The notes: generated by a model from the sequence alone, not told the origin. 64,000 nucleotides of DNA from an uncultured Mycoplasmatota bacterium (GCA_900551455.1 URVV01000004.1:18165-82164), one strand, 5' to 3'. Positions 8,220 to 50,832 are shown, numbered from the stretch's first letter. Translations and numbers: made by a program.

Positions 8220-10142
8220 TTAATTTTCTTTTTTATTAAACATATGGCGTACTTTATCTATTCGATTATTTGGTCTGCGTGATTGAATAACTGGTTCACA
8301 AGTAGCAATTTGATAATCTTTTAATTCTGTCAAAAAAACTGCTTGCCCATTTGTATATAGAGTTAAAGTATTACGATATTCATTAATACAACGTGCAGGA
8401 ATATGTCCTGTAAAAATAACTTCATCATTTTTTGATTGACTTGTTTCAATTATTGCACAATGTTTTTGTGCATCATTATATGCACGAGAAAAGTATTCCT
8501 GTGGTGTAAAAAGTATAAACGAACAATATGGCTCTAATAATTGCGTTCCCGCTTTTTTCAATGTTTGTTCAAGTACAATTGGGGCAAGAAAGCGAAAATC
8601 CGAGGGAGTACTAACAGGGCTATAATAAACACCATATTCAAAACATATTTTACAATCTGTTACTTCCCAACCATACAAACCTTGCTCCAGTCCATAATTA
8701 ATACCTTCTCTTACTGCATTTTGGAAACTTTGATTTAAATAACCGAGTGAAACTTTGCTTTCGTACTGTATTCCACTGCCAATTGGAAGTGGAGTTATTG
8801 ATAATCCAATCGATGCCCAAAATGGATTTGGTGGTACTTCAATATGAATAGTATAATCTGCCTTTTGTAATGGTTTTTCCAAATAAATTACGGTTGGATC
8901 TTCGATTCTTATGTTTATGTGATATTTTTCAATCAACAGAGAACAGATAACTTCTAACTGCACTGTTCCTAAAAAAGAAATGATGATTTCATGTGTTATC
9001 GTATCAACATAATAACGTAAAAGAGGATCAGTATCTGCAATTTCTGTAAGAGCATCCAATAATTTTTCTCTCTCTTCTATTTTTATCGGTTCAATTCTTG
9101 TTCGTAGTATTGGTACAGTCTTGTCATTCCATACATTGCATGGCAAAAGCTTTTCATTTCCTATAATATCGTTCAATCTTAATGTATTGTTAGGTATAAT
9201 AAAAATATCTCCAGAACAAACTGTTTTTGTCTGTATCATTTCTCCATTTGAAGGAATATATATTTCTGTAAGTTTCACTTTCTTTTTTTCTGGCAATATA
9301 ATTGTATCTCGTAAGTGTAATGTTCCACTGTAAAGACGCAAATAAACTAATCTTTGCTTATGGTCTGTATATTCAATTTTAAAAACCCTTCCACATAGTT
9401 CTGAATCATTCTCATTCATTTCAGGACAAAAAAGATTTGAAATAGCTTCGATGAGTTGTTGAGTCCCTATATTATTTCTAGCACTTCCATGGTATATAGG
9501 AAACAACGAACCTTTTTTAACACACCTATATTCTTCATACGTTAATTCTTGTATAGTCAATTTTTCTCCTGCAATATATTTTTCTAAAAGTTTATCATTT
9601 TTGGAAATTACAGGATCCCAATCATCTAAATCAATAATATTTTTAATTGATATTTCTGGAGTTAATGTTACATTTTGCATAACAATAATATCATTTGAAA
9701 GTTTTTCTTTGATATTTTGATAAATATTATTTAAGTTAATTCCATCCTGATCTATTTTATTTATAAAAATAATTGTTGGTATATTCATTTTTTGAAGTGC
9801 ATGGAATAGTATTCTGGTTTGTGCTTGTACACCATCTTTAGCAGAAATTACTAAAATAGCTCCATCAAGAACAGATAAGGAACGATACACTTCTGTTATA
9901 AAATCTGCATGTCCAGGAGTATCTACAATATTGATTTTGTAGTCATTCCAATTAAAAGAAGTAACTGCTGCCTGAATTGTGATTCCACGCTGACGTTCTA
10001 AAAACATAGTATCTGTCCTTGTTGTTCCCTTATCTACACTGCCTAATTCTAAAATCGCTCCACTTGTATAAAGCAGACTTTCCGTTAAAGTTGTCTTTCC
10101 TGCATCTACATGAGCAAGAATACCAATGTTGATTATTTTCAT
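8220..10142 (-). CDS. tetracycline-resistance ribosomal protection protein, Tet(M)/Tet(O)/Tet(44) family (640 aa; a Tet(44)-like allele is suspected from memory only)
   Basis: [30 protein letters not shown]...[17 protein letters not shown]...DTPGHADF...INKIDQ is the EF-G-like GTPase with the characteristic RPP N-terminus. SD GGGAGGGA. Confidence 0.93.
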
Positions 10143-42667: not shown

Positions 42668-42700
42668 CTATAAAAATAAAACTCACACAAAAGTGTGAGT
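42668..42700 (-). terminator. rho-independent terminator-like hairpin
   Basis: ACTCACAC-aaaa-GTGTGAGT followed by TTTTATTTTT on the minus strand, just downstream of the CTCAATGGAGC copy at 42707-42717. Confidence 0.5.
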
Positions 42701-42813
42701 AATTCTCTCAATGGAGCCGTAGTTGAGTGATTACACAACTTTTTCTCACATGAGGATGATATATAAATCATCCATCTATAAATATTATAGCACTTTTTTT
42801 GTTTTAATAATAT

Positions 42814-44613
42814 TTATTTTAAATAATTGTTAATAATTTTTTTGTAATCTTTTTCATTACTATTTTTAATAACTATTTTCATTTTAAATTTGTTTGTTAT
42901 AGTTTTAAAATACTGATTAATCAAATCTTTATCAAATTTAAATATAAAGTTTAAAAATAAGTTATCTTCTTTATCATCCTCTAAACAATATTTTAGTATA
43001 TAGTTATAATCTTCTTGTGAATAATTTATTAAATCTTTAACACCCCAATTTTGTTGATTTTTAAACAATAATTCTAAGTGTTCTTTAACGAATTTTCTAC
43101 AGAAATCTAAATCAATTCCATAATAATCACTATATATGTTGTGTTCCCAATTATTATTTTCCATTTTTATTAATGCAAGTAATGTTAAATGAATTGCTAC
43201 TCTCATTTCTTCAGATTCCAAATTCATTCCAATAAATAATTTAAAACTTCGCTCATCTTTATTTTGAAGTGTTCTTAATAAAAGAAGCGCTGTTGCTTGA
43301 CCTAATATGTGAGGTTTCATTTTTCTTTCTTTTGGCTTTATATAGTCGTAAGAAAAATTTGTAATATCTCTAATAATATTGCAACCATTATGAGCTGACA
43401 TTCTATAAATTTCATGTAATTCAGTATAGCAATTTAATTTTTCTCTTTCACTTAAGTATTTATTATTATAAACATTACTATATACTATATCAAAATAATC
43501 ACTGTTATAGTGATAAATAAAATTTAATTTTATTTCTGGCCAATTTATATAAGAATAATCATTAGTTAAAGCAAAATGTTGTTGTATTTCTATATTAGTT
43601 ATTATAGGAGATAACATACTTAGATAATTTTTTGTTTCGTATTCATTATTAAAATCCATTATTTTATTAGCTATATCTTTAAAAATTTTATTCATACCAT
43701 CATAACTTATAAAGATATTATGAAAATTAAATCTTGAAAGAATCCAATTGTAATATTGAATGGCTCTAGTTAAATCTTTAAAATATATAAAATGTTCTAT
43801 TACTTCTATAAAATCATTTACTATACTCGGTGCATATGACATATTCAAATGATATTTTTGTAATTCCTTAGGTATATTAAACAATATTCGATCAATTAAA
43901 ACTTTGTACATGTTTATATTTTTTATATATGAATTGTCATTATTTGCAATCAGTTTTATTGTTTCTTCTTTTAAATTTATTAACAGAGGGGAATTGTAGT
44001 CTTTAGGAGGAATATTGTTAATTATATTTTTTTCGCATTCTAAATAGTATTTTGAATATAGCAATTTTACATATTTTTTTGTTGTGACAAAGATTGTTCC
44101 TATTTTTGTTATAATGTATATTAGAACAAAGATTGATAATAAAAATAGTGAAATTATTAAATTAGAACATTCTTTTTTTATTGTTAATGTAACATTAATA
44201 ATCATTGAAACATATAAAAGAAACATTGGCAAATAAAATTTTAATAATTTTTTACCAAACAATAAATTTGTTGTTTTTTCTCCAAGGATATGTTTATCCT
44301 CGACACTCGATACAAGTGATAGTACAGCAGTGGTCAAAAATGTACTTCCTATTTGAGATATTACCAAATCTTTATAAATATCTTCGTATTTAATATCCAT
44401 TATTTTAATAAATTTCCATGAATGAAAATCAAATGAAATGACATTTAAAATTTTCAATATGAATAAGTATATTGTGATAAATAATATAAATTTTAAACAA
44501 TTATAAATTAAATTTGTTTTTGGAGTCCATTTATGTTCTGCTTTTTTTAAATAATTATCAATATTCCATTTATTTTTTTTAATCGACATTTTAATTTTTG
44601 CTATTTTTTTCAT
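42814..44613 (-). CDS. large uncharacterized membrane protein (N-terminal multi-TM region + about 400-aa helical soluble domain)
   Basis: ATG at 44613 follows GGGTGGGA (the track start 44676 is less likely). Hydrophobic helices run through about residue 200. No catalytic motif recognised. Divergent from the R-M operon. Confidence 0.6.
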   Translation of the reverse strand: MKKIAKIKMSIKKNKWNIDNYLKKAEHKWTPKTNLIYNCLKFILFITIYLFILKILNVISFDFHSWKFIKIMDIKYEDIYKDLVISQIGSTFLTTAVLSLVSSVEDKHILGEKTTNLLFGKKLLKFYLPMFLLYVSMIINVTLTIKKECSNLIISLFLLSIFVLIYIITKIGTIFVTTKKYVKLLYSKYYLECEKNIINNIPPKDYNSPLLINLKEETIKLIANNDNSYIKNINMYKVLIDRILFNIPKELQKYHLNMSYAPSIVNDFIEVIEHFIYFKDLTRAIQYYNWILSRFNFHNIFISYDGMNKIFKDIANKIMDFNNEYETKNYLSMLSPIITNIEIQQHFALTNDYSYINWPEIKLNFIYHYNSDYFDIVYSNVYNNKYLSEREKLNCYTELHEIYRMSAHNGCNIIRDITNFSYDYIKPKERKMKPHILGQATALLLLRTLQNKDERSFKLFIGMNLESEEMRVAIHLTLLALIKMENNNWEHNIYSDYYGIDLDFCRKFVKEHLELLFKNQQNWGVKDLINYSQEDYNYILKYCLEDDKEDNLFLNFIFKFDKDLINQYFKTITNKFKMKIVIKNSNEKDYKKIINNYLK

Positions 44614-44719
44614 AATTATCCCACCCAACAAAAATAAATTGCTATTATTATAACATATTTTAAGTATTATCAACAAAAATAACTGTGTTATATGTTATAA
44701 TATATACGAGGTGTAATGT

Positions 44720-45586
44720 ATGAGTGATAACTTGATATTTTTTATGAATGCTTTTTTGTTTGAATTGGAAGAATCATTAAATAATAATTTGGCATACTTT
44801 GATGATGTTAAATTCCAATTTGATGAAGCAAATACGGATCAACAAATAAAAATAAAGATTAAAGAATTCATTTTAAGTAATTTTAAAAGTATTAATAGTG
44901 TCACTGAAATAAAAAGTAATGGCAAGGATACTTATATTTCAAAAGATGATTTTAGTATTTCGAATGTTAAAGTTCCATCAGAATTAACAGATGATGATAG
45001 AAATTATATTCGAAGTACTAGAAATGCTGTATATACTAATCCGGACTTACTATTTATTATAACTGATGGAGAAAATAACTATAGAATTCCTGTTGAAGTG
45101 AAAAGTACAAAAAATAATAATATTCCTGGGTCTAGTGTACAGCAAATAGATGCAAATGACTGGGTAATATTTTTGAAACATGATGATAAACATATTTTGG
45201 AATTTGTTACTGGAAAATATATTGATGCAATAAGCGGTACAATGCAATTTCCTGATAGAAGTCCTAGACCACAAGTATCTTATAATATATTAAAGAATTG
45301 GAATAGAGATTATAGAACCTTTAAAAATGGTATTCTAGCTTTTGAAGAGGATAAAGATAAAGATGATAAACTTCAATTAATTGAAGATTGGCAAATGCTA
45401 TTGTCGAAAAGATGGTTAGGTTTATTGAAACAAAAAAAGAAATTTTATAATGAACCTTGGTTTAATAATAATATAAGAAAATTTTCAGTATTGTTACTAG
45501 AATATTATGATTCATTAAGCAATGAGGAAAAACAAGAATACATAAATTTTATTAAGGATAATATTACAGGAGAAACCAATGACTAA
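44720..45586 (+). CDS. type II restriction endonuclease candidate (PD-(D/E)xK)
   Basis: LLFIITDGENNYRIPVEVKSTK fits D-x(n)-E-x-K. GAGGTG SD. The 3' end overlaps the methyltransferase start by 8 nt. Confidence 0.6.
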   Translation: MSDNLIFFMNAFLFELEESLNNNLAYFDDVKFQFDEANTDQQIKIKIKEFILSNFKSINSVTEIKSNGKDTYISKDDFSISNVKVPSELTDDDRNYIRSTRNAVYTNPDLLFIITDGENNYRIPVEVKSTKNNNIPGSSVQQIDANDWVIFLKHDDKHILEFVTGKYIDAISGTMQFPDRSPRPQVSYNILKNWNRDYRTFKNGILAFEEDKDKDDKLQLIEDWQMLLSKRWLGLLKQKKKFYNEPWFNNNIRKFSVLLLEYYDSLSNEEKQEYINFIKDNITGETND

Positions 45587-46589
45587 ACAAAAATATAAAG
45601 TAGTATCCTTGTTTTCTGGATGTGGCGGTATGGATTTAGGATTTGAAGGGAACTTTACTTATTTAAATAAAAAATATGCTGCTAACCCTTTTGAAATAGT
45701 TTACTCCAATGATTTTGAAAAGAAAGCGTGCGAAACATATAATTATAATTTCAAAACAAAAATAGTTTGTGATGATATAAATAATATAGATGAAAAAGAC
45801 ATTCCAAATTGTGATATAGTTATAGGTGGATTTCCATGTCAAGACTTTTCTTTAGCTGGTAAAAGAAAGGGATTTAGTAGTCAAAGAGGACAACTTTATA
45901 AACAAATGTTAAGAATTGTAAAAAGTAAAATGCCAAAAATATTTGTAGCAGAAAATGTTGAAGGAATTAGTATAAATATTGAAAATAGTTCTCCGTTATT
46001 GAAAATAATTGATGAGTTTAGACATGTAGGTTATAAAGTTGATTATCAGTTATTTAATACTGCTGATTATGGAGTTCCTCAAACAAGAAAAAGGATTATT
46101 ATAATAGGAGTCCGTGATGATTTAAACATATTACCCAAATTTCCTAAACCAACATTAACTTCAAATACTTGGATTACCGCAAAAGATGCTATAGATGATT
46201 TATGGGATAAATTGGATACAGGTTATGTAAAAAATCACACTTCAAAGGATTATTCAAAAGCAAAATTTTCAGAAAATGGTAAGGGTCAAGGAAACAGACA
46301 AATTGAGGCTGATAAACCATCTATAACTATAAGAGCTGAACATCATGGAAATATAGAAGGCCATTATAGAAGTATGAATCCTAAAGAACCTAATAATAAA
46401 AATTTTTGGAGAAGATTATCAATTAGAGAATGTGCAAGAATTCAAAGTTTTCCAGATAGCTTTGTATTTCCATGTGCGGCTTCTTCTGCATATAAACAAA
46501 TAGGAAATGCTGTCCCACCTGTTTTTGGATGGCATATTGCAAATAATGTGCTTGAAATTTTAGAGCAAATTGAAAAAGATGATTTATAG
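45579..46589 (+). CDS. DNA (cytosine-5)-methyltransferase
   Basis: Motif I SLFSGCGGMDLGF, motif IV GGFPCQDFSLAG, motif VI ENVEG, motif VIII QTRKRIIIIG, motif X GNAVPP. Confidence 0.95.
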   Translation: MTKQKYKVVSLFSGCGGMDLGFEGNFTYLNKKYAANPFEIVYSNDFEKKACETYNYNFKTKIVCDDINNIDEKDIPNCDIVIGGFPCQDFSLAGKRKGFSSQRGQLYKQMLRIVKSKMPKIFVAENVEGISINIENSSPLLKIIDEFRHVGYKVDYQLFNTADYGVPQTRKRIIIIGVRDDLNILPKFPKPTLTSNTWITAKDAIDDLWDKLDTGYVKNHTSKDYSKAKFSENGKGQGNRQIEADKPSITIRAEHHGNIEGHYRSMNPKEPNNKNFWRRLSIRECARIQSFPDSFVFPCAASSAYKQIGNAVPPVFGWHIANNVLEILEQIEKDDL

Positions 46590-47957
46590 GGATATTCCAG
46601 AATCATCTTTTTCTTTGCCAAAATTATCATTATAACCTAAAATATTATCAAATGTTTTTTCACTAATAATTTGATTATTATACATGTCATCAACAACTTC
46701 TGTATAAATGTCTTCTTTATCTTTTCTATTAAGCATTCTTTTTAAGAATTTAACTAGTTTTTCAAATAAATGTTGCAGTCCTTGAAGTTGATATTTTAAA
46801 TCAAAATTATCATTTTTTAATTCTTTTATTTGTTTTTCTTGAGTTTCTACTTTTTCATTTAAGTTATCAACTCTTAACTCTAGCGTTTCATTATTCTCTC
46901 TCAAACTTTTAAGTTTTCTACTATCTTGTCTTGCTTGTTTAGTAATAATATTTAAGTTTGCCGATAATTCTTTTACATCTCTATAATCATCTGTAATTTT
47001 ATCAACTTTATCAATATAGTCTTCCAATTTATCTTTTTGTTCTTTAGAAATAATAAATAAATTATCTTTTAATAGAACTTTCTTAAGATTTTTTATTTCA
47101 TTCTTAATAATATTAGAATTAGATTTTAATTCTAAAGAATTATTACTTATTGAATCTATTTCTTTTTGATGTTTTTCAATTAAGTTTTTAGTTTCTTGAT
47201 AATTAGACATGTCAGATACATTAATATCTCTATTTCTACCTTTTAATTTTTGTTTTAAAGTAGCATCCAGATTATATTCTTTGTTGTATTCTTCAATACA
47301 TAGAGTTCTCATCTTATCTTGCAACTCTTTTAATGAATTTCTAGTAAACACATCTGTTTTGCCAACTTGAGTTGTCATTCCAGTTTTACAATTATACTTT
47401 ATAGGAACACCTACAATGTGCATGTGAGGACTAGTCTCATCATAATGAATTATTGCACTACACACTTTAAAATTTGGTATTAATAACTCTAAATCATCCA
47501 CTTGTTTTGAATATACATTAGTCATTTTATATTTATATTTTAAATCCTTTGTGTCCCAAAATTTCTTATCTCCAAGTTCAATTATAATCTCGCAAGCTAA
47601 ATCACTTTTAGAATTATCACTTACTTTTTTGAAATAATTATCTATCTTTCTATCTTCTCTTGTTTGCTTATTATTGTATTCTAATCTTGCTTCTTCAAAT
47701 TCGTTTTTATAAAAATCTTGAACATCTTTATAAAGGGAAGAAGTACCTTTTACAATTACAATCTGTTCTTGTTCATTGTCATATTTTCTATAATTATGAT
47801 TATCACATTTTGATAAAGTCTTGGCATTTTGTATTCCATTATTAGTCATTGAAGTTGTTCCACTCACGTTATTTTTAGCAGAACTTCTAACACTATTTTT
47901 TTTATTCTTATCACTACCCAAATGGAAAGAATATGCTAATTCACTTATAAAAATCAT
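46584..47957 (-). CDS. MobV-family (Mob/Pre) relaxase
   Basis: CDNHNYRKYDN (HxxR) and HYDETSPHMHIVGVPI (HxDExxPHxH), with a coiled-coil C-terminus. The SD abuts the ATG, so the exact start is uncertain. Confidence 0.85.
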   Translation of the reverse strand: MIFISELAYSFHLGSDKNKKNSVRSSAKNNVSGTTSMTNNGIQNAKTLSKCDNHNYRKYDNEQEQIVIVKGTSSLYKDVQDFYKNEFEEARLEYNNKQTREDRKIDNYFKKVSDNSKSDLACEIIIELGDKKFWDTKDLKYKYKMTNVYSKQVDDLELLIPNFKVCSAIIHYDETSPHMHIVGVPIKYNCKTGMTTQVGKTDVFTRNSLKELQDKMRTLCIEEYNKEYNLDATLKQKLKGRNRDINVSDMSNYQETKNLIEKHQKEIDSISNNSLELKSNSNIIKNEIKNLKKVLLKDNLFIISKEQKDKLEDYIDKVDKITDDYRDVKELSANLNIITKQARQDSRKLKSLRENNETLELRVDNLNEKVETQEKQIKELKNDNFDLKYQLQGLQHLFEKLVKFLKRMLNRKDKEDIYTEVVDDMYNNQIISEKTFDNILGYNDNFGKEKDDSGISL

Positions 47958-47997
47958 CTCCTTTTTAATGGCTTTATTTTGGATGTCAAAATATATA

Positions 47998-48206
47998 ACC
48001 CCCTAGATATCTTGTCATGCTAACAAGATATCAGTGGGCTAAGGAATATTCCTTAGAATCCTTTATGCAATACTTTGTAATGAAACTATGTACTACATAC
48101 TTTCAAAACTTCGTATTGTAATGATGAAAATATTTTATCTTCATAAAACATTTTCCTTTGTTAAAATGCTATCGCCACTTTCATTACTTCGTAACAAAAC
48201 GTGCCA
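47998..48206 (-). other. conserved noncoding module upstream of mob (putative oriT), homologous to 7871-8085
   Basis: Minus strand from 48206 reads GTGGCACGTTTTG-TTACgaaGTAA-TGAAAGTGGCGATAG. Also an 18-bp perfect palindrome CTAAGGAATATTCCTTAG (48039-48056) and a 10-bp-stem hairpin GATATCTTGT/ACAAGATATC (48006-48032). Confidence 0.55.
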
Positions 48207-48212
48207 CGCATT

Positions 48213-50192
<1,980 letters not shown>

Positions 50193-50336
50193 CTAAATAC
50201 TACTGACTCCTCAAAATAATTGATATTAATTAATTTTAATTGTCTGTGTTTATATTTCATAGATGTACTTCCATTTCTAGATCATACCTCTTTCATTGGT
50301 TATATATAGTATCACTTTTGAAAATAATGTCAATAG

Positions 50337-50609
50337 TTATAGATTTTTAATAAACTCTTGTAAATCACTAATATTAATATGTTTTTGTAAATTTTCTACA
50401 TAAACATCTCTACCATGATTAAAAGCTAGAAATGTTGTACCTTTGATGATTATTTTATTTGGTTCTATATAATTGATATTTGTTTTCTCAACTTTACGAA
50501 TAGAACCATTGATAAACGTAGGCGTAGTATTACAAAAATCGCAAATAAACTGGATTCTTGTTTTAAGCTCTTCATCAATAGGTATTTCTTTTGTTATAAC
50601 TTTTAACAT
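50337..50609 (-). CDS. hypothetical 90-aa protein at the element C terminus, upstream of the LSR gene
   Basis: AAAGGATGGTGA SD. No motif. Confidence 0.45.
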   Translation of the reverse strand: MLKVITKEIPIDEELKTRIQFICDFCNTTPTFINGSIRKVEKTNINYIEPNKIIIKGTTFLAFNHGRDVYVENLQKHINISDLQEFIKNL

Positions 50610-50680
50610 AATTCACCATCCTTTCTTTTTGGATGGATGATTTATATATCTTCCAAGCTCACACGTGGGAGTTCGAGACA

Positions 50681-50707
50681 CAAAAAAATCTATCTTTCGA
50701 TAGATTT
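50681..50707 (-). terminator. rho-independent terminator downstream of tRNA-Gly
   Basis: AAATCTATC-tttc-GATAGATTT followed by TTTTTTT on the minus strand. Confidence 0.6.
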
Positions 50708-50757
50708 ATATATCAAACTCGGTAATTGTTCCGAGCAGATTCCTCAATGGAGCAGAT

Positions 50758-50832
50758 GAGGGGAGTCAAACCCCCGTCACAGCCTTGGCAAGGCCGTATT
50801 CTAGTCGTTGAACCACATCTGCATAATCAGTA
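50758..50832 (-). tRNA. tRNA-Gly (anticodon GCC) with non-canonical D-loop and T-loop
   Basis: Hand fold: GCAGATG-TG-GTTC-AACGACTA-GAAT-A-CGGCC-TTGCCAA-GGCTG-TGAC-GGGGG-TTTGACT-CCCCT-CATCTGC-T-CCA. All stems pair, but the D-loop has no GG and the T-loop is TTTGA rather than TTCGA. Confidence 0.7.

Follow-up and report, generated by a model that had tools for sequence, protein, structure and literature searches.

Element C occupies the CCA end of a tRNA-Gly(gcc) gene within a 64,000-nucleotide stretch of DNA from an uncultured Mycoplasmatota bacterium (GCA_900551455.1, URVV01000004.1:18165-82164; hereafter the window, in whose coordinates all positions are given), and is an 8036-bp integrative mobilizable element (IME) inserted there by its own large serine recombinase (LSR). 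A preliminary description of the window had put forward two competing boundaries, an outer 11-bp direct repeat and an inner CTCACA repeat flanked by inverted 23-nt arms. The outer model is correct as the boundary, while the inner repeats are, as judged from sequence comparison and fold prediction, most likely conserved regulatory RNA elements. The whole reading that we favor, and consider probable though far from certain, is that of an IME bounded by the outer repeat, whose inner repeats would form a junction-dependent control circuit of the integrase on the minus strand.

Contigs of other samples with the same flanks were obtained via a DUF4186 protein encoded ~1.1 kb left of element C. In the following, the near end is that beside the tRNA, and the far end the opposite one. 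The boundary features are:

42707-42717, left 11-bp direct repeat CTCAATGGAGC, attL core, placed by empty-site alignment.
50743-50753, right copy of the 11-bp repeat CTCAATGGAGC, attR core.
50748-50822, minus strand, target gene tRNA-Gly(gcc), called by ARAGORN.
50889-50862, tRNA-Gly promoter TTGATT-16-TATAAT, from a promoter scan.
42681-42700, minus strand, original tRNA-Gly terminator, displaced to the far flank, from a terminator scan.

Five independent contigs (L001, L004, L006, L007 and L008) hold an empty site between flanks otherwise identical to those of the window, and all five consist of the left flank, a single 11-mer and the tRNA (...AACTCACACAAAAGTGTGAGTAATTCT-CTCAATGGAGC-AGATGAGGGGAG..., also given as ...GTAATTCT-CTCAATGGAGC-AGATGAGG(tRNA)). 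Thus, the insertion measures 8036 bp with the outer repeat as its boundary, and the empty sites equal what the outer model predicts for genomes lacking the element. Element C is hence present or absent between contigs with identical flanks, has its own integration module and is bounded by direct repeats; L002 (GCA_902476685.1) carries an identical copy, with 0 mismatches in 8200 nt. The 11-mer CTCAATGGAGC is found twice in the window and in 0 of 100 shuffles, congruent with the earlier view that such a pair is unlikely by chance. Its left copy lies where it had been placed; the right one, reported at 50753-50763, is 10 nt off, and holds as claimed the last six nucleotides (GCTCCA, 50748-50753) of tRNA-Gly, which stays intact after insertion. 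On these alignments, the repeat marks the extent over which attP and attB are identical. The original terminator directly abuts tRNA-Gly in the empty sites, and is one of the two hairpins that had been assigned to the 11-mers. The other, at 50686-50707, is real as part of a terminator-like hairpin (T2, below), which the consensus scan did not call because the stem has only two G-C pairs.

The same point is used by other elements, which further bears out the outer boundary. Three other types are inserted there: L005/L009 have the shorter repeat AATGGAGC, L003 the likewise shorter TGGAGC, and L010 shows a fourth left end. Two of these types carry a homologous pair of an ~90-aa protein and a serine recombinase beside the tRNA, the recombinases being 29% and 55% identical to that of the window. 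At least four to six unrelated element families, often in tandem, make the tRNA-Gly CCA end an insertion hot spot (window plus L003, L005, L009, L010, L013, L021, L024, L028 and L034); among 79 near ends from metagenome contigs, about half are immediately preceded by the far end of another element. As a side observation, the recombinase of L003 (5985-6656) has 223 aa, with a catalytic domain 55% identical to that of the window LSR and the middle domains apparently missing; by its sequence it looks like a decayed copy.

Relatives of the LSR number thousands; a genome scan confirmed 194 related loci, 80 of which were fetched. Loci that extend far enough upstream nearly all show a co-oriented tRNA 3' end at a distance of 0.5-0.9 kb on that side, the target tRNAs being Gly-gcc, Gly-tcc, Leu, Cys, Arg, Gln and Thr, and the family is site-specific for tRNA CCA ends across 50+ loci. 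Homology to the window extends from the core through the relaxase gene, breaks at the cargo and resumes for the ~120 bp to the far core. Eleven species-representative genomes (L021-L031), whose labels include Mollicutes, Bacilli, Erysipelotrichaceae, Clostridium and Tenericutes, encode LSRs that are 96-99% identical; they are metagenome-assembled genomes from humans, ruminants and other animals, and the near-identity points to recent wide transfer.

Elements whose core differs from that of their target narrow the site of exchange:

L074, near junction (tRNA-Cys) CCTCCA, far junction (element) GCTCCA.
L037, near junction (tRNA) GTACCA, far junction (element) GCACCA.
L062, near junction (tRNA) ACTCCA, far junction (element) GCTCCA.
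L093, near junction (tRNA) GCTCCA, far junction (element) GCACCA.

The tRNA base is retained at the near junction and the element base at the far junction, so exchange takes place rightward of base three; the right limit is set by L013 and L003, in which divergence begins directly behind the A of CCA. Together, these junctions and this limit put the crossover inside CCA, and in the window it is confined to TGG at 42712-42714 / 50748-50750 (CCA on the tRNA strand). The crossover dinucleotide is, by this comparison, CC or CA within the tRNA CCA, and a palindrome-centre scan of attP and attB returned a weak common centre near the core. The core is flanked in attP by two arms:

42718-42744, minus strand, far-end attP arm P', AAAAAGTTGTGTAATCACTCAACTACG.
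50718-50742, minus strand, near-end attP arm P with hairpin T1 (CTCGG...CCGAG, 50718-50735).

Far ends were located by P'-arm motif searches, as searches for 8-9 nt direct repeats are unreliable. P' is conserved right up to the core across the group of relatives with 78-99% LSR identity. The seven attP nucleotides before the core follow the target, GACGTTC-GCTCCA for Gly/Thr/Cys and TTCGTTG-GCACCA for Leu/Arg, with the rest of the arm constant, and to judge from the far ends of loci L037-L099 this switch looks like a simple re-targeting rule. T1 occupies the place that the tRNA's own terminator has at the empty site; it was also observed that T1 and the host terminator (42681-42700) look alike (AAACTC...GAG..TTC.CTCAATGGAGC). 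The circle joint predicted by the outer model is P'-GCTCCATTGAG-P, i.e. ...CACTCAACTACG-GCTCCATTGAG-GAATCTGCTCGG..., for which an exact search of metagenome contigs gave no match.

Between the near core and the LSR operon lies a 5' untranslated region (5'UTR) with the following features:

50703-50714, minus strand, third copy of the 12-mer GATTTATATATC, GATATATAAATC on this strand.
50682-50707, minus strand, T2, terminator-like hairpin AAATCTATC-GAAA-GATAGATTT followed by seven T.
50632-50654, minus strand, arm R, GGAAGATATATAAATCATCCATC.
50631-50641, minus strand, sequence complementary to the Shine-Dalgarno region (anti-SD), the 3' part of arm R, ATCATCCATCC.
50613-50624, minus strand, Shine-Dalgarno (SD) region of the 90-aa gene, AAAGGATGGTGA.
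50337-50609, minus strand, 90-aa protein, first gene of the LSR operon.

All near ends share one order: core, P arm with T1, T2 with its T-run, AAATCATCC, loop, GGATGGTG and start codon. The position of T2 is conserved in all groups, and the third 12-mer overlaps the 5' half of T2. In the last hairpin, the SD is paired with the 3' part of arm R; the predicted fold of the window 5'UTR (z = -4.26) contains T1, T2 and this stem, which pairs the SD region with the anti-SD and sequesters SD and AUG. The anti-SD:SD hairpin is also the RNAalifold consensus of 20 diverse sequences, with one both-sided change (AU to UG, 3 sequences) in addition to compatible one-sided changes, and arm R has a 15-nt core that 54 of 69 near ends share.

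At the far end, a putative promoter, P_out, faces outward:

42784-42792, minus strand, extended -10 promoter P_out, TGCTATAAT (TGnTATAAT).
42754-42776, minus strand, arm L, GATGGATGATTTATATATCATCC.

Comparison of 11 far ends recovered TATAAT in all 11 and the TG in nine, next to unrelated cargo. In the group with 78-99% LSR identity, the order is TGnTATAAT, ~10 nt, GGATGATTTATATATCATCC (arm L), TCATGTGAG, P' arm and core. The 63-67% group keeps the order with other sequences, TTGCAA-16/17-TGaTATACT and then the hairpin TTGATTGATATTTGTATCAATCG, and the promoter scan found the equivalent in L058 (TTGCAA-16-TATACT). The distant L005 type presents TTGAAA-17-TACAAT (promoter scan), then TAGAAAGAGAAC. 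Hence TGnTATAAT or a -35/-10 consensus is conserved, at the sequence level, at the far ends of all groups, from which we infer promoter activity of P_out. The shared order across groups therefore marks arm L as the first structured element of the putative outward transcript, at whose predicted 5' end it forms a 7-6-7 hairpin.

Arm L has two complementary sequences at the near end, arm R and the 12-mer at 50703-50714, and the complementarity between the two ends is group-specific. In the window, the duplex of the leader with the near end reaches -37.3 kcal/mol (z = -7.7 against shuffled leaders, all leader nulls being mononucleotide shuffles), and 17 of 20 elements reach p <= 0.03. In a matrix of leaders against T2 regions from four sequence groups, the diagonal is lowest in every row and column (-20.4, -18.9, -19.9 and -17.2, versus -8 to -17 off the diagonal). 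In the 63-67% group, the leader is complementary to GATACAAAATCAATCAG, which comprises the 5' half of T2 with its flank and lies where the window has its third 12-mer. The duplex is stronger on the LSR-sense than on the antisense strand (mean -20.0 vs -17.7; 20 of 29 elements), as expected if G-U pairs are tolerated in RNA. Folds were then predicted for the integrated and the junction transcript, with the following probabilities:

Window element, SD unpaired, integrated 0.29, junction 0.76.
L032, SD unpaired, integrated 0.29, junction 0.73.
L027, SD unpaired, integrated 0.29, junction 0.69.
L051, T2 formed, integrated 0.99, junction 0.21.
L072, T2 formed, integrated 0.75, junction 0.03.
L040, T2 formed, integrated 0.87, junction 0.41.
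L058, T2 formed, integrated 0.99, junction 0.99.

Arm L is paired with arm R in the fold of lowest energy for the window junction transcript. That the ends pair as RNA, and that pairing affects expression, is what we infer from these sequences and models. The favored reading would then operate as follows. In the chromosome, the 90-aa/LSR operon would be reachable only by read-through from the tRNA promoter, which would meet T1 and T2 and be stopped; in transcripts passing T2, the ribosome site would be blocked through pairing of arm R with SD and start codon. Integrated P_out would fire outward, its transcript beginning with arm L and ending at the displaced tRNA terminator (42700-42681). In the excised circle, P_out would instead read across attP into the operon, and arm L would base-pair both with arm R, so that the ribosome site becomes accessible, and with the 12-mer next to T2. 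The 90-aa protein and the LSR would be made from the joined form and the circle would integrate; with integrase made mainly from the joined form, re-integration would be favored.

Several observations weigh against this circuit, which is proposed from sequence and fold prediction. The window's P_out has no -35 match, and its T2 has a probability of 0.75 in the integrated as well as the junction transcript. No effect is predicted for L058 and L088, the minimum-energy fold of L005 lacks the arm pairing, and group D relatives lack the anti-SD sequence. None of the 79 near ends in metagenome contigs is preceded by a window-type far end. Arm L would also fold into its own hairpin first, and with ~170 nt separating it from the downstream arm R, the long-range pairing could be precluded kinetically. 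Finally, the compared sequences are related, hence the p-values overstate the evidence and are indicative only.

The inner repeats were also weighed as a boundary. The features that the preliminary description reported do exist: CTCACA is located at 42745-42750 and 50658-50663, and the 23-nt arms (42754-42776 / 50632-50654) are complementary with one mismatch (29 nt at 90% in an inverted-repeat listing). The 12-mer GATTTATATATC indeed occurs three times near the ends, against a chance expectation of 0.05, at 50639-50650, inverted at 42758-42769, and with its middle copy at 50703-50714 rather than 50713. However, relatives from dozens of hosts retain the 37 bp and 89 bp beyond the arms all the way to the core, and these stretches are therefore integral parts of the element. 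The right CTCACA is carried by a facultative segment:

50645-50677, minus strand, facultative 33-nt segment carrying the right CTCACA.

This segment is found in 12 of 69 distinct related near ends, leaving the other 57 without the right CTCACA. Together with the conserved 37 and 89 bp, this excludes, and contradicts, the inner model as the recombination boundary. It had further been proposed that the ~120 bp between the two boundaries is the scar of an earlier element; this is not supported for the whole 126 bp, but the 33-nt segment may, by its sequence, be the scar of an earlier neighbor. The segment also occurs in diverged form in L093, and its TGTCTCGAACT in the window resembles the family P arm TCTGTTCGAACT. 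A self-mobile smaller element of CTCACA and 23-nt arms, nested in a 126-bp remnant, would explain why a 6-bp direct repeat flanks inverted arms that would give a 58-bp palindromic joint. We regard it as barely conceivable: wherever the inner unit occurs, the outer 37 and 89 bp accompany it, all relatives extending to the core, and those lacking the right CTCACA are nevertheless spread over many hosts. CTCACA is not enriched as a word either (15 copies in the window vs 18.4 expected), the arms begin 3 nt from the repeat with those 3 nt mismatched, and the element encodes no DDE transposase. No locus among the relatives supports the predicted inner joint (...TCTTCCAAG-CTCACA-TGAGGATGA...), although the joint itself was not searched directly. 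A DDE-type transposon with terminal inverted repeats and target-site duplication was likewise rejected, given that the element lacks a transposase, that repeat and arms are not contiguous, and that the right repeat belongs to a facultative segment.

If not a boundary, the arms and the 12-mer could be DNA sites bound by protein (accessory sites of the LSR, sites of the 90-aa protein as directionality factor, or of a repressor) that shape the attP synapse or repress the end promoters. Each arm is near-palindromic and operator-like (GGATGAT-N6-ATCATCC), the sites lie ~40-60 bp from the core on both sides in several groups, and a group-specific match also fits co-evolution with a group-specific protein. 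Still, we consider this unlikely. Order and spacing of the half-sites differ, being GGATGAT-6-ATCATCC at the far end, ATCATTC-4-GAATGAT at T2 and CCATCC-9-GGATGG at the anti-SD; variants are G-U compatible with one strand favored; a conserved -10 box always directly precedes the far arm, and the near arm overlaps the SD partner. Moreover, the 90-aa protein has no recognisable DNA-binding fold, and LSRs require only about 50-bp attP sites. The earlier suggestion that the arms are accessory sites is thus half right: they are functional sequences outside the crossover, but their position behind a conserved outward promoter, their overlap with anti-SD and terminator flank, the G-U tolerance and the strand asymmetry favor RNA pairing over recombinase binding. 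Finally, the inverted repeats could be functionless debris, either duplicated terminator-like hairpins or remnants of neighbors left by tandem accretion or imprecise deletion. Tandem arrays are common, as seen from the near ends that follow another far end, and the 33-nt segment is facultative and resembles the P arm in part. We deem debris quite unlikely, as neutrally evolving non-coding DNA would have lost the complementarity that persists in four groups with LSRs only 63-80% identical and differing leaders, most near ends retain the 15-nt arm R core, and the far-end module is conserved beside unrelated cargo.

With regard to gene content, the minus strand encodes, from the tRNA side, the 90-aa protein, the LSR and a Mob_Pre/MobV relaxase. 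The remaining genes of element C are:

48213-50141, minus strand, LSR, 642 aa (PF00239 E 7.8e-33; PF07508 E 2.2e-17; phrog_95 integrase E 2.8e-100).
46584-47957, minus strand, MobV/Mob_Pre relaxase, 457 aa (PF01076 E 5.2e-12).
45579-46589, plus strand, C-5 cytosine DNA methyltransferase, cargo (PF00145 E 1.3e-81; PADLOC MTase_II E 9e-102).
44720-45586, plus strand, 288-aa open reading frame (ORF), cargo, overlapping the methylase start.
42814-44676, minus strand, 620-aa ORF, cargo (599 aa as called in L002).

The LSR has the make-up of a serine integrase, with a resolvase catalytic domain (PF00239, residues 14-160; motif YMRVSTEDQ near the N-terminus), a recombinase domain, a zinc ribbon (PF13408, at 20.2 bits below its 25.3 cutoff), a long C-terminal part and a length above 400 aa. 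The relaxase matches NF041497 MobV with E 2e-8 and 34.6 bits, under the 100-bit cutoff of that model. None of the six ORFs matches a coupling protein or VirB4; with a relaxase and no mating-pore genes, the element is classed as an IME, and a search of a plasmid collection gave no near match to it. Searches of Pfam, PHROGs, PADLOC and NCBIfam yielded no match for the 90-aa, 288-aa and 620-aa proteins. By its position, the 288-aa ORF is a candidate restriction enzyme, and the 90-aa protein is, likewise by position, a candidate recombination directionality factor. The latter adjoins the LSR across the family at 49-89% identity (26-37% in other element types), and its AlphaFold model is confident (pLDDT 90.9) with an alpha/beta fold, for which a comparison with the PDB gave no match (best E 0.58). 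Elsewhere in the window, a 640-aa ORF at 8220-10142 was considered as a sister LSR and discarded, having no similarity to the LSR of element C and not being a recombinase.

Element C combines a serine-integrase IME with a probable state-dependent control of the integrase, both of known kinds. Promoter switching that depends on the integrated or excised state has been demonstrated in ICEKp1, with reports of it also in ICEclc and ICEEc1 (PMC13023037). Integrated ICEKp1 uses the tRNA promoter with attenuating 5'UTR stem-loops, excised ICEKp1 a promoter at its 3' end, and stem-loop SL3 has been suggested as the pairing partner of a 15-nt sequence at that 3' end (PMC13023037). As in these three elements, the integrase gene of element C is co-oriented with the tRNA whose 3' end it adjoins, the terminator of that tRNA has been displaced and, by sequence and fold prediction, the 5'UTR has stem-loops; a far-end promoter that would serve the integrase after circularisation, and a short far-end sequence that would pair with a 5'UTR stem-loop, complete the likeness. 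ICEKp1, ICEclc and ICEEc1 are however large conjugative elements of Proteobacteria with tyrosine integrases, whereas element C is small and mobilizable, encodes a serine integrase, resides in a low-GC gut Firmicute and has an extra anti-SD layer, and its pairing is supported by cross-group comparison rather than experiment.

Tn4451 and Tn4453, mobilizable transposons of Clostridium and Clostridioides with TnpX and TnpZ, are similar in size (6-8 kb), in their low-GC Firmicute hosts, in the combination of LSR and Mob_Pre/MobV relaxase and in their very short end repeats. Lyras and Rood reportedly described in 2000 that the circular intermediate of Tn4451 expresses the recombinase gene tnpX via a joint promoter. 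The Tn4451 promoter is assembled at the joint, while that of element C is complete at the far end and comes with a putative RNA complement to the 5'UTR. Tn4451 has a 2-bp crossover and low target specificity (PMC5704250); its family inserts with low specificity at GA dinucleotides, that of element C specifically at tRNA CCA ends. Only the catalytic domain of the LSR matches TnpX (2mhc, E 2.5e-9), and element C, having no DUF4368 or TnpV, is not a member of the Tn4451/Tn4453 family, which is marked by a TnpX-type recombinase with DUF4368 together with TnpV, TnpY and TnpW. The LSR shares the domain order of resolvase, recombinase and zinc ribbon with phage LSRs (TP901-1, A118/LI, Bxb1 and phiC31), its best PDB match being the catalytic domain of TP901-1 integrase (E 8.8e-22), and short att sites with a separate directionality factor would be expected as in those phages. 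In contrast to them, the carrier is not a phage and the target is the universal tRNA CCA, with the tRNA end rebuilt from attP, a habit of tyrosine integrases that is seen here with a serine integrase. Streptococcal serine-integrase IMEs likewise have a single serine integrase at one end, very short repeats and frequent accretion, but insert inside rumA, traG, maff2 and snf2, disrupting them (PMC5357655, PMC5704250), whereas the family of element C uses tRNA 3' ends and leaves the tRNA intact.

Aggregated, these findings settle the att sites for a very common, undescribed gut family of serine-integrase mobilizable elements. Serine integrases can accordingly use the tRNA CCA end without damage to the tRNA, a habit that the IME literature credits to tyrosine integrases. 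For integrase tools, both the short, defined attP/attB pairs and what looks like re-targeting through a change of a few bases hold practical interest, and the comparative support for pairing between far end and 5'UTR makes an idea hitherto only suggested for ICEKp1 directly testable. It is tempting to extend the circuit to an RNA lock and key, in which the far-end leader would pair only with the T2 flank and the anti-SD of its own operon, and the integrase would be made from a circle joining the element's own two ends but stay off under a neighbor's promoter or tRNA read-through, in a family that crosses over in the universal CCA and re-targets via ~7 attP nucleotides; we offer this extension tentatively, and hold it to be a good deal more doubtful than the circuit itself. 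As speculation, group-specific pairing could keep a neighbor's outward promoter from activating a foreign integrase in tandem arrays. If the lock and key is true, it would explain how many unrelated elements share one tRNA end without cross-activation.

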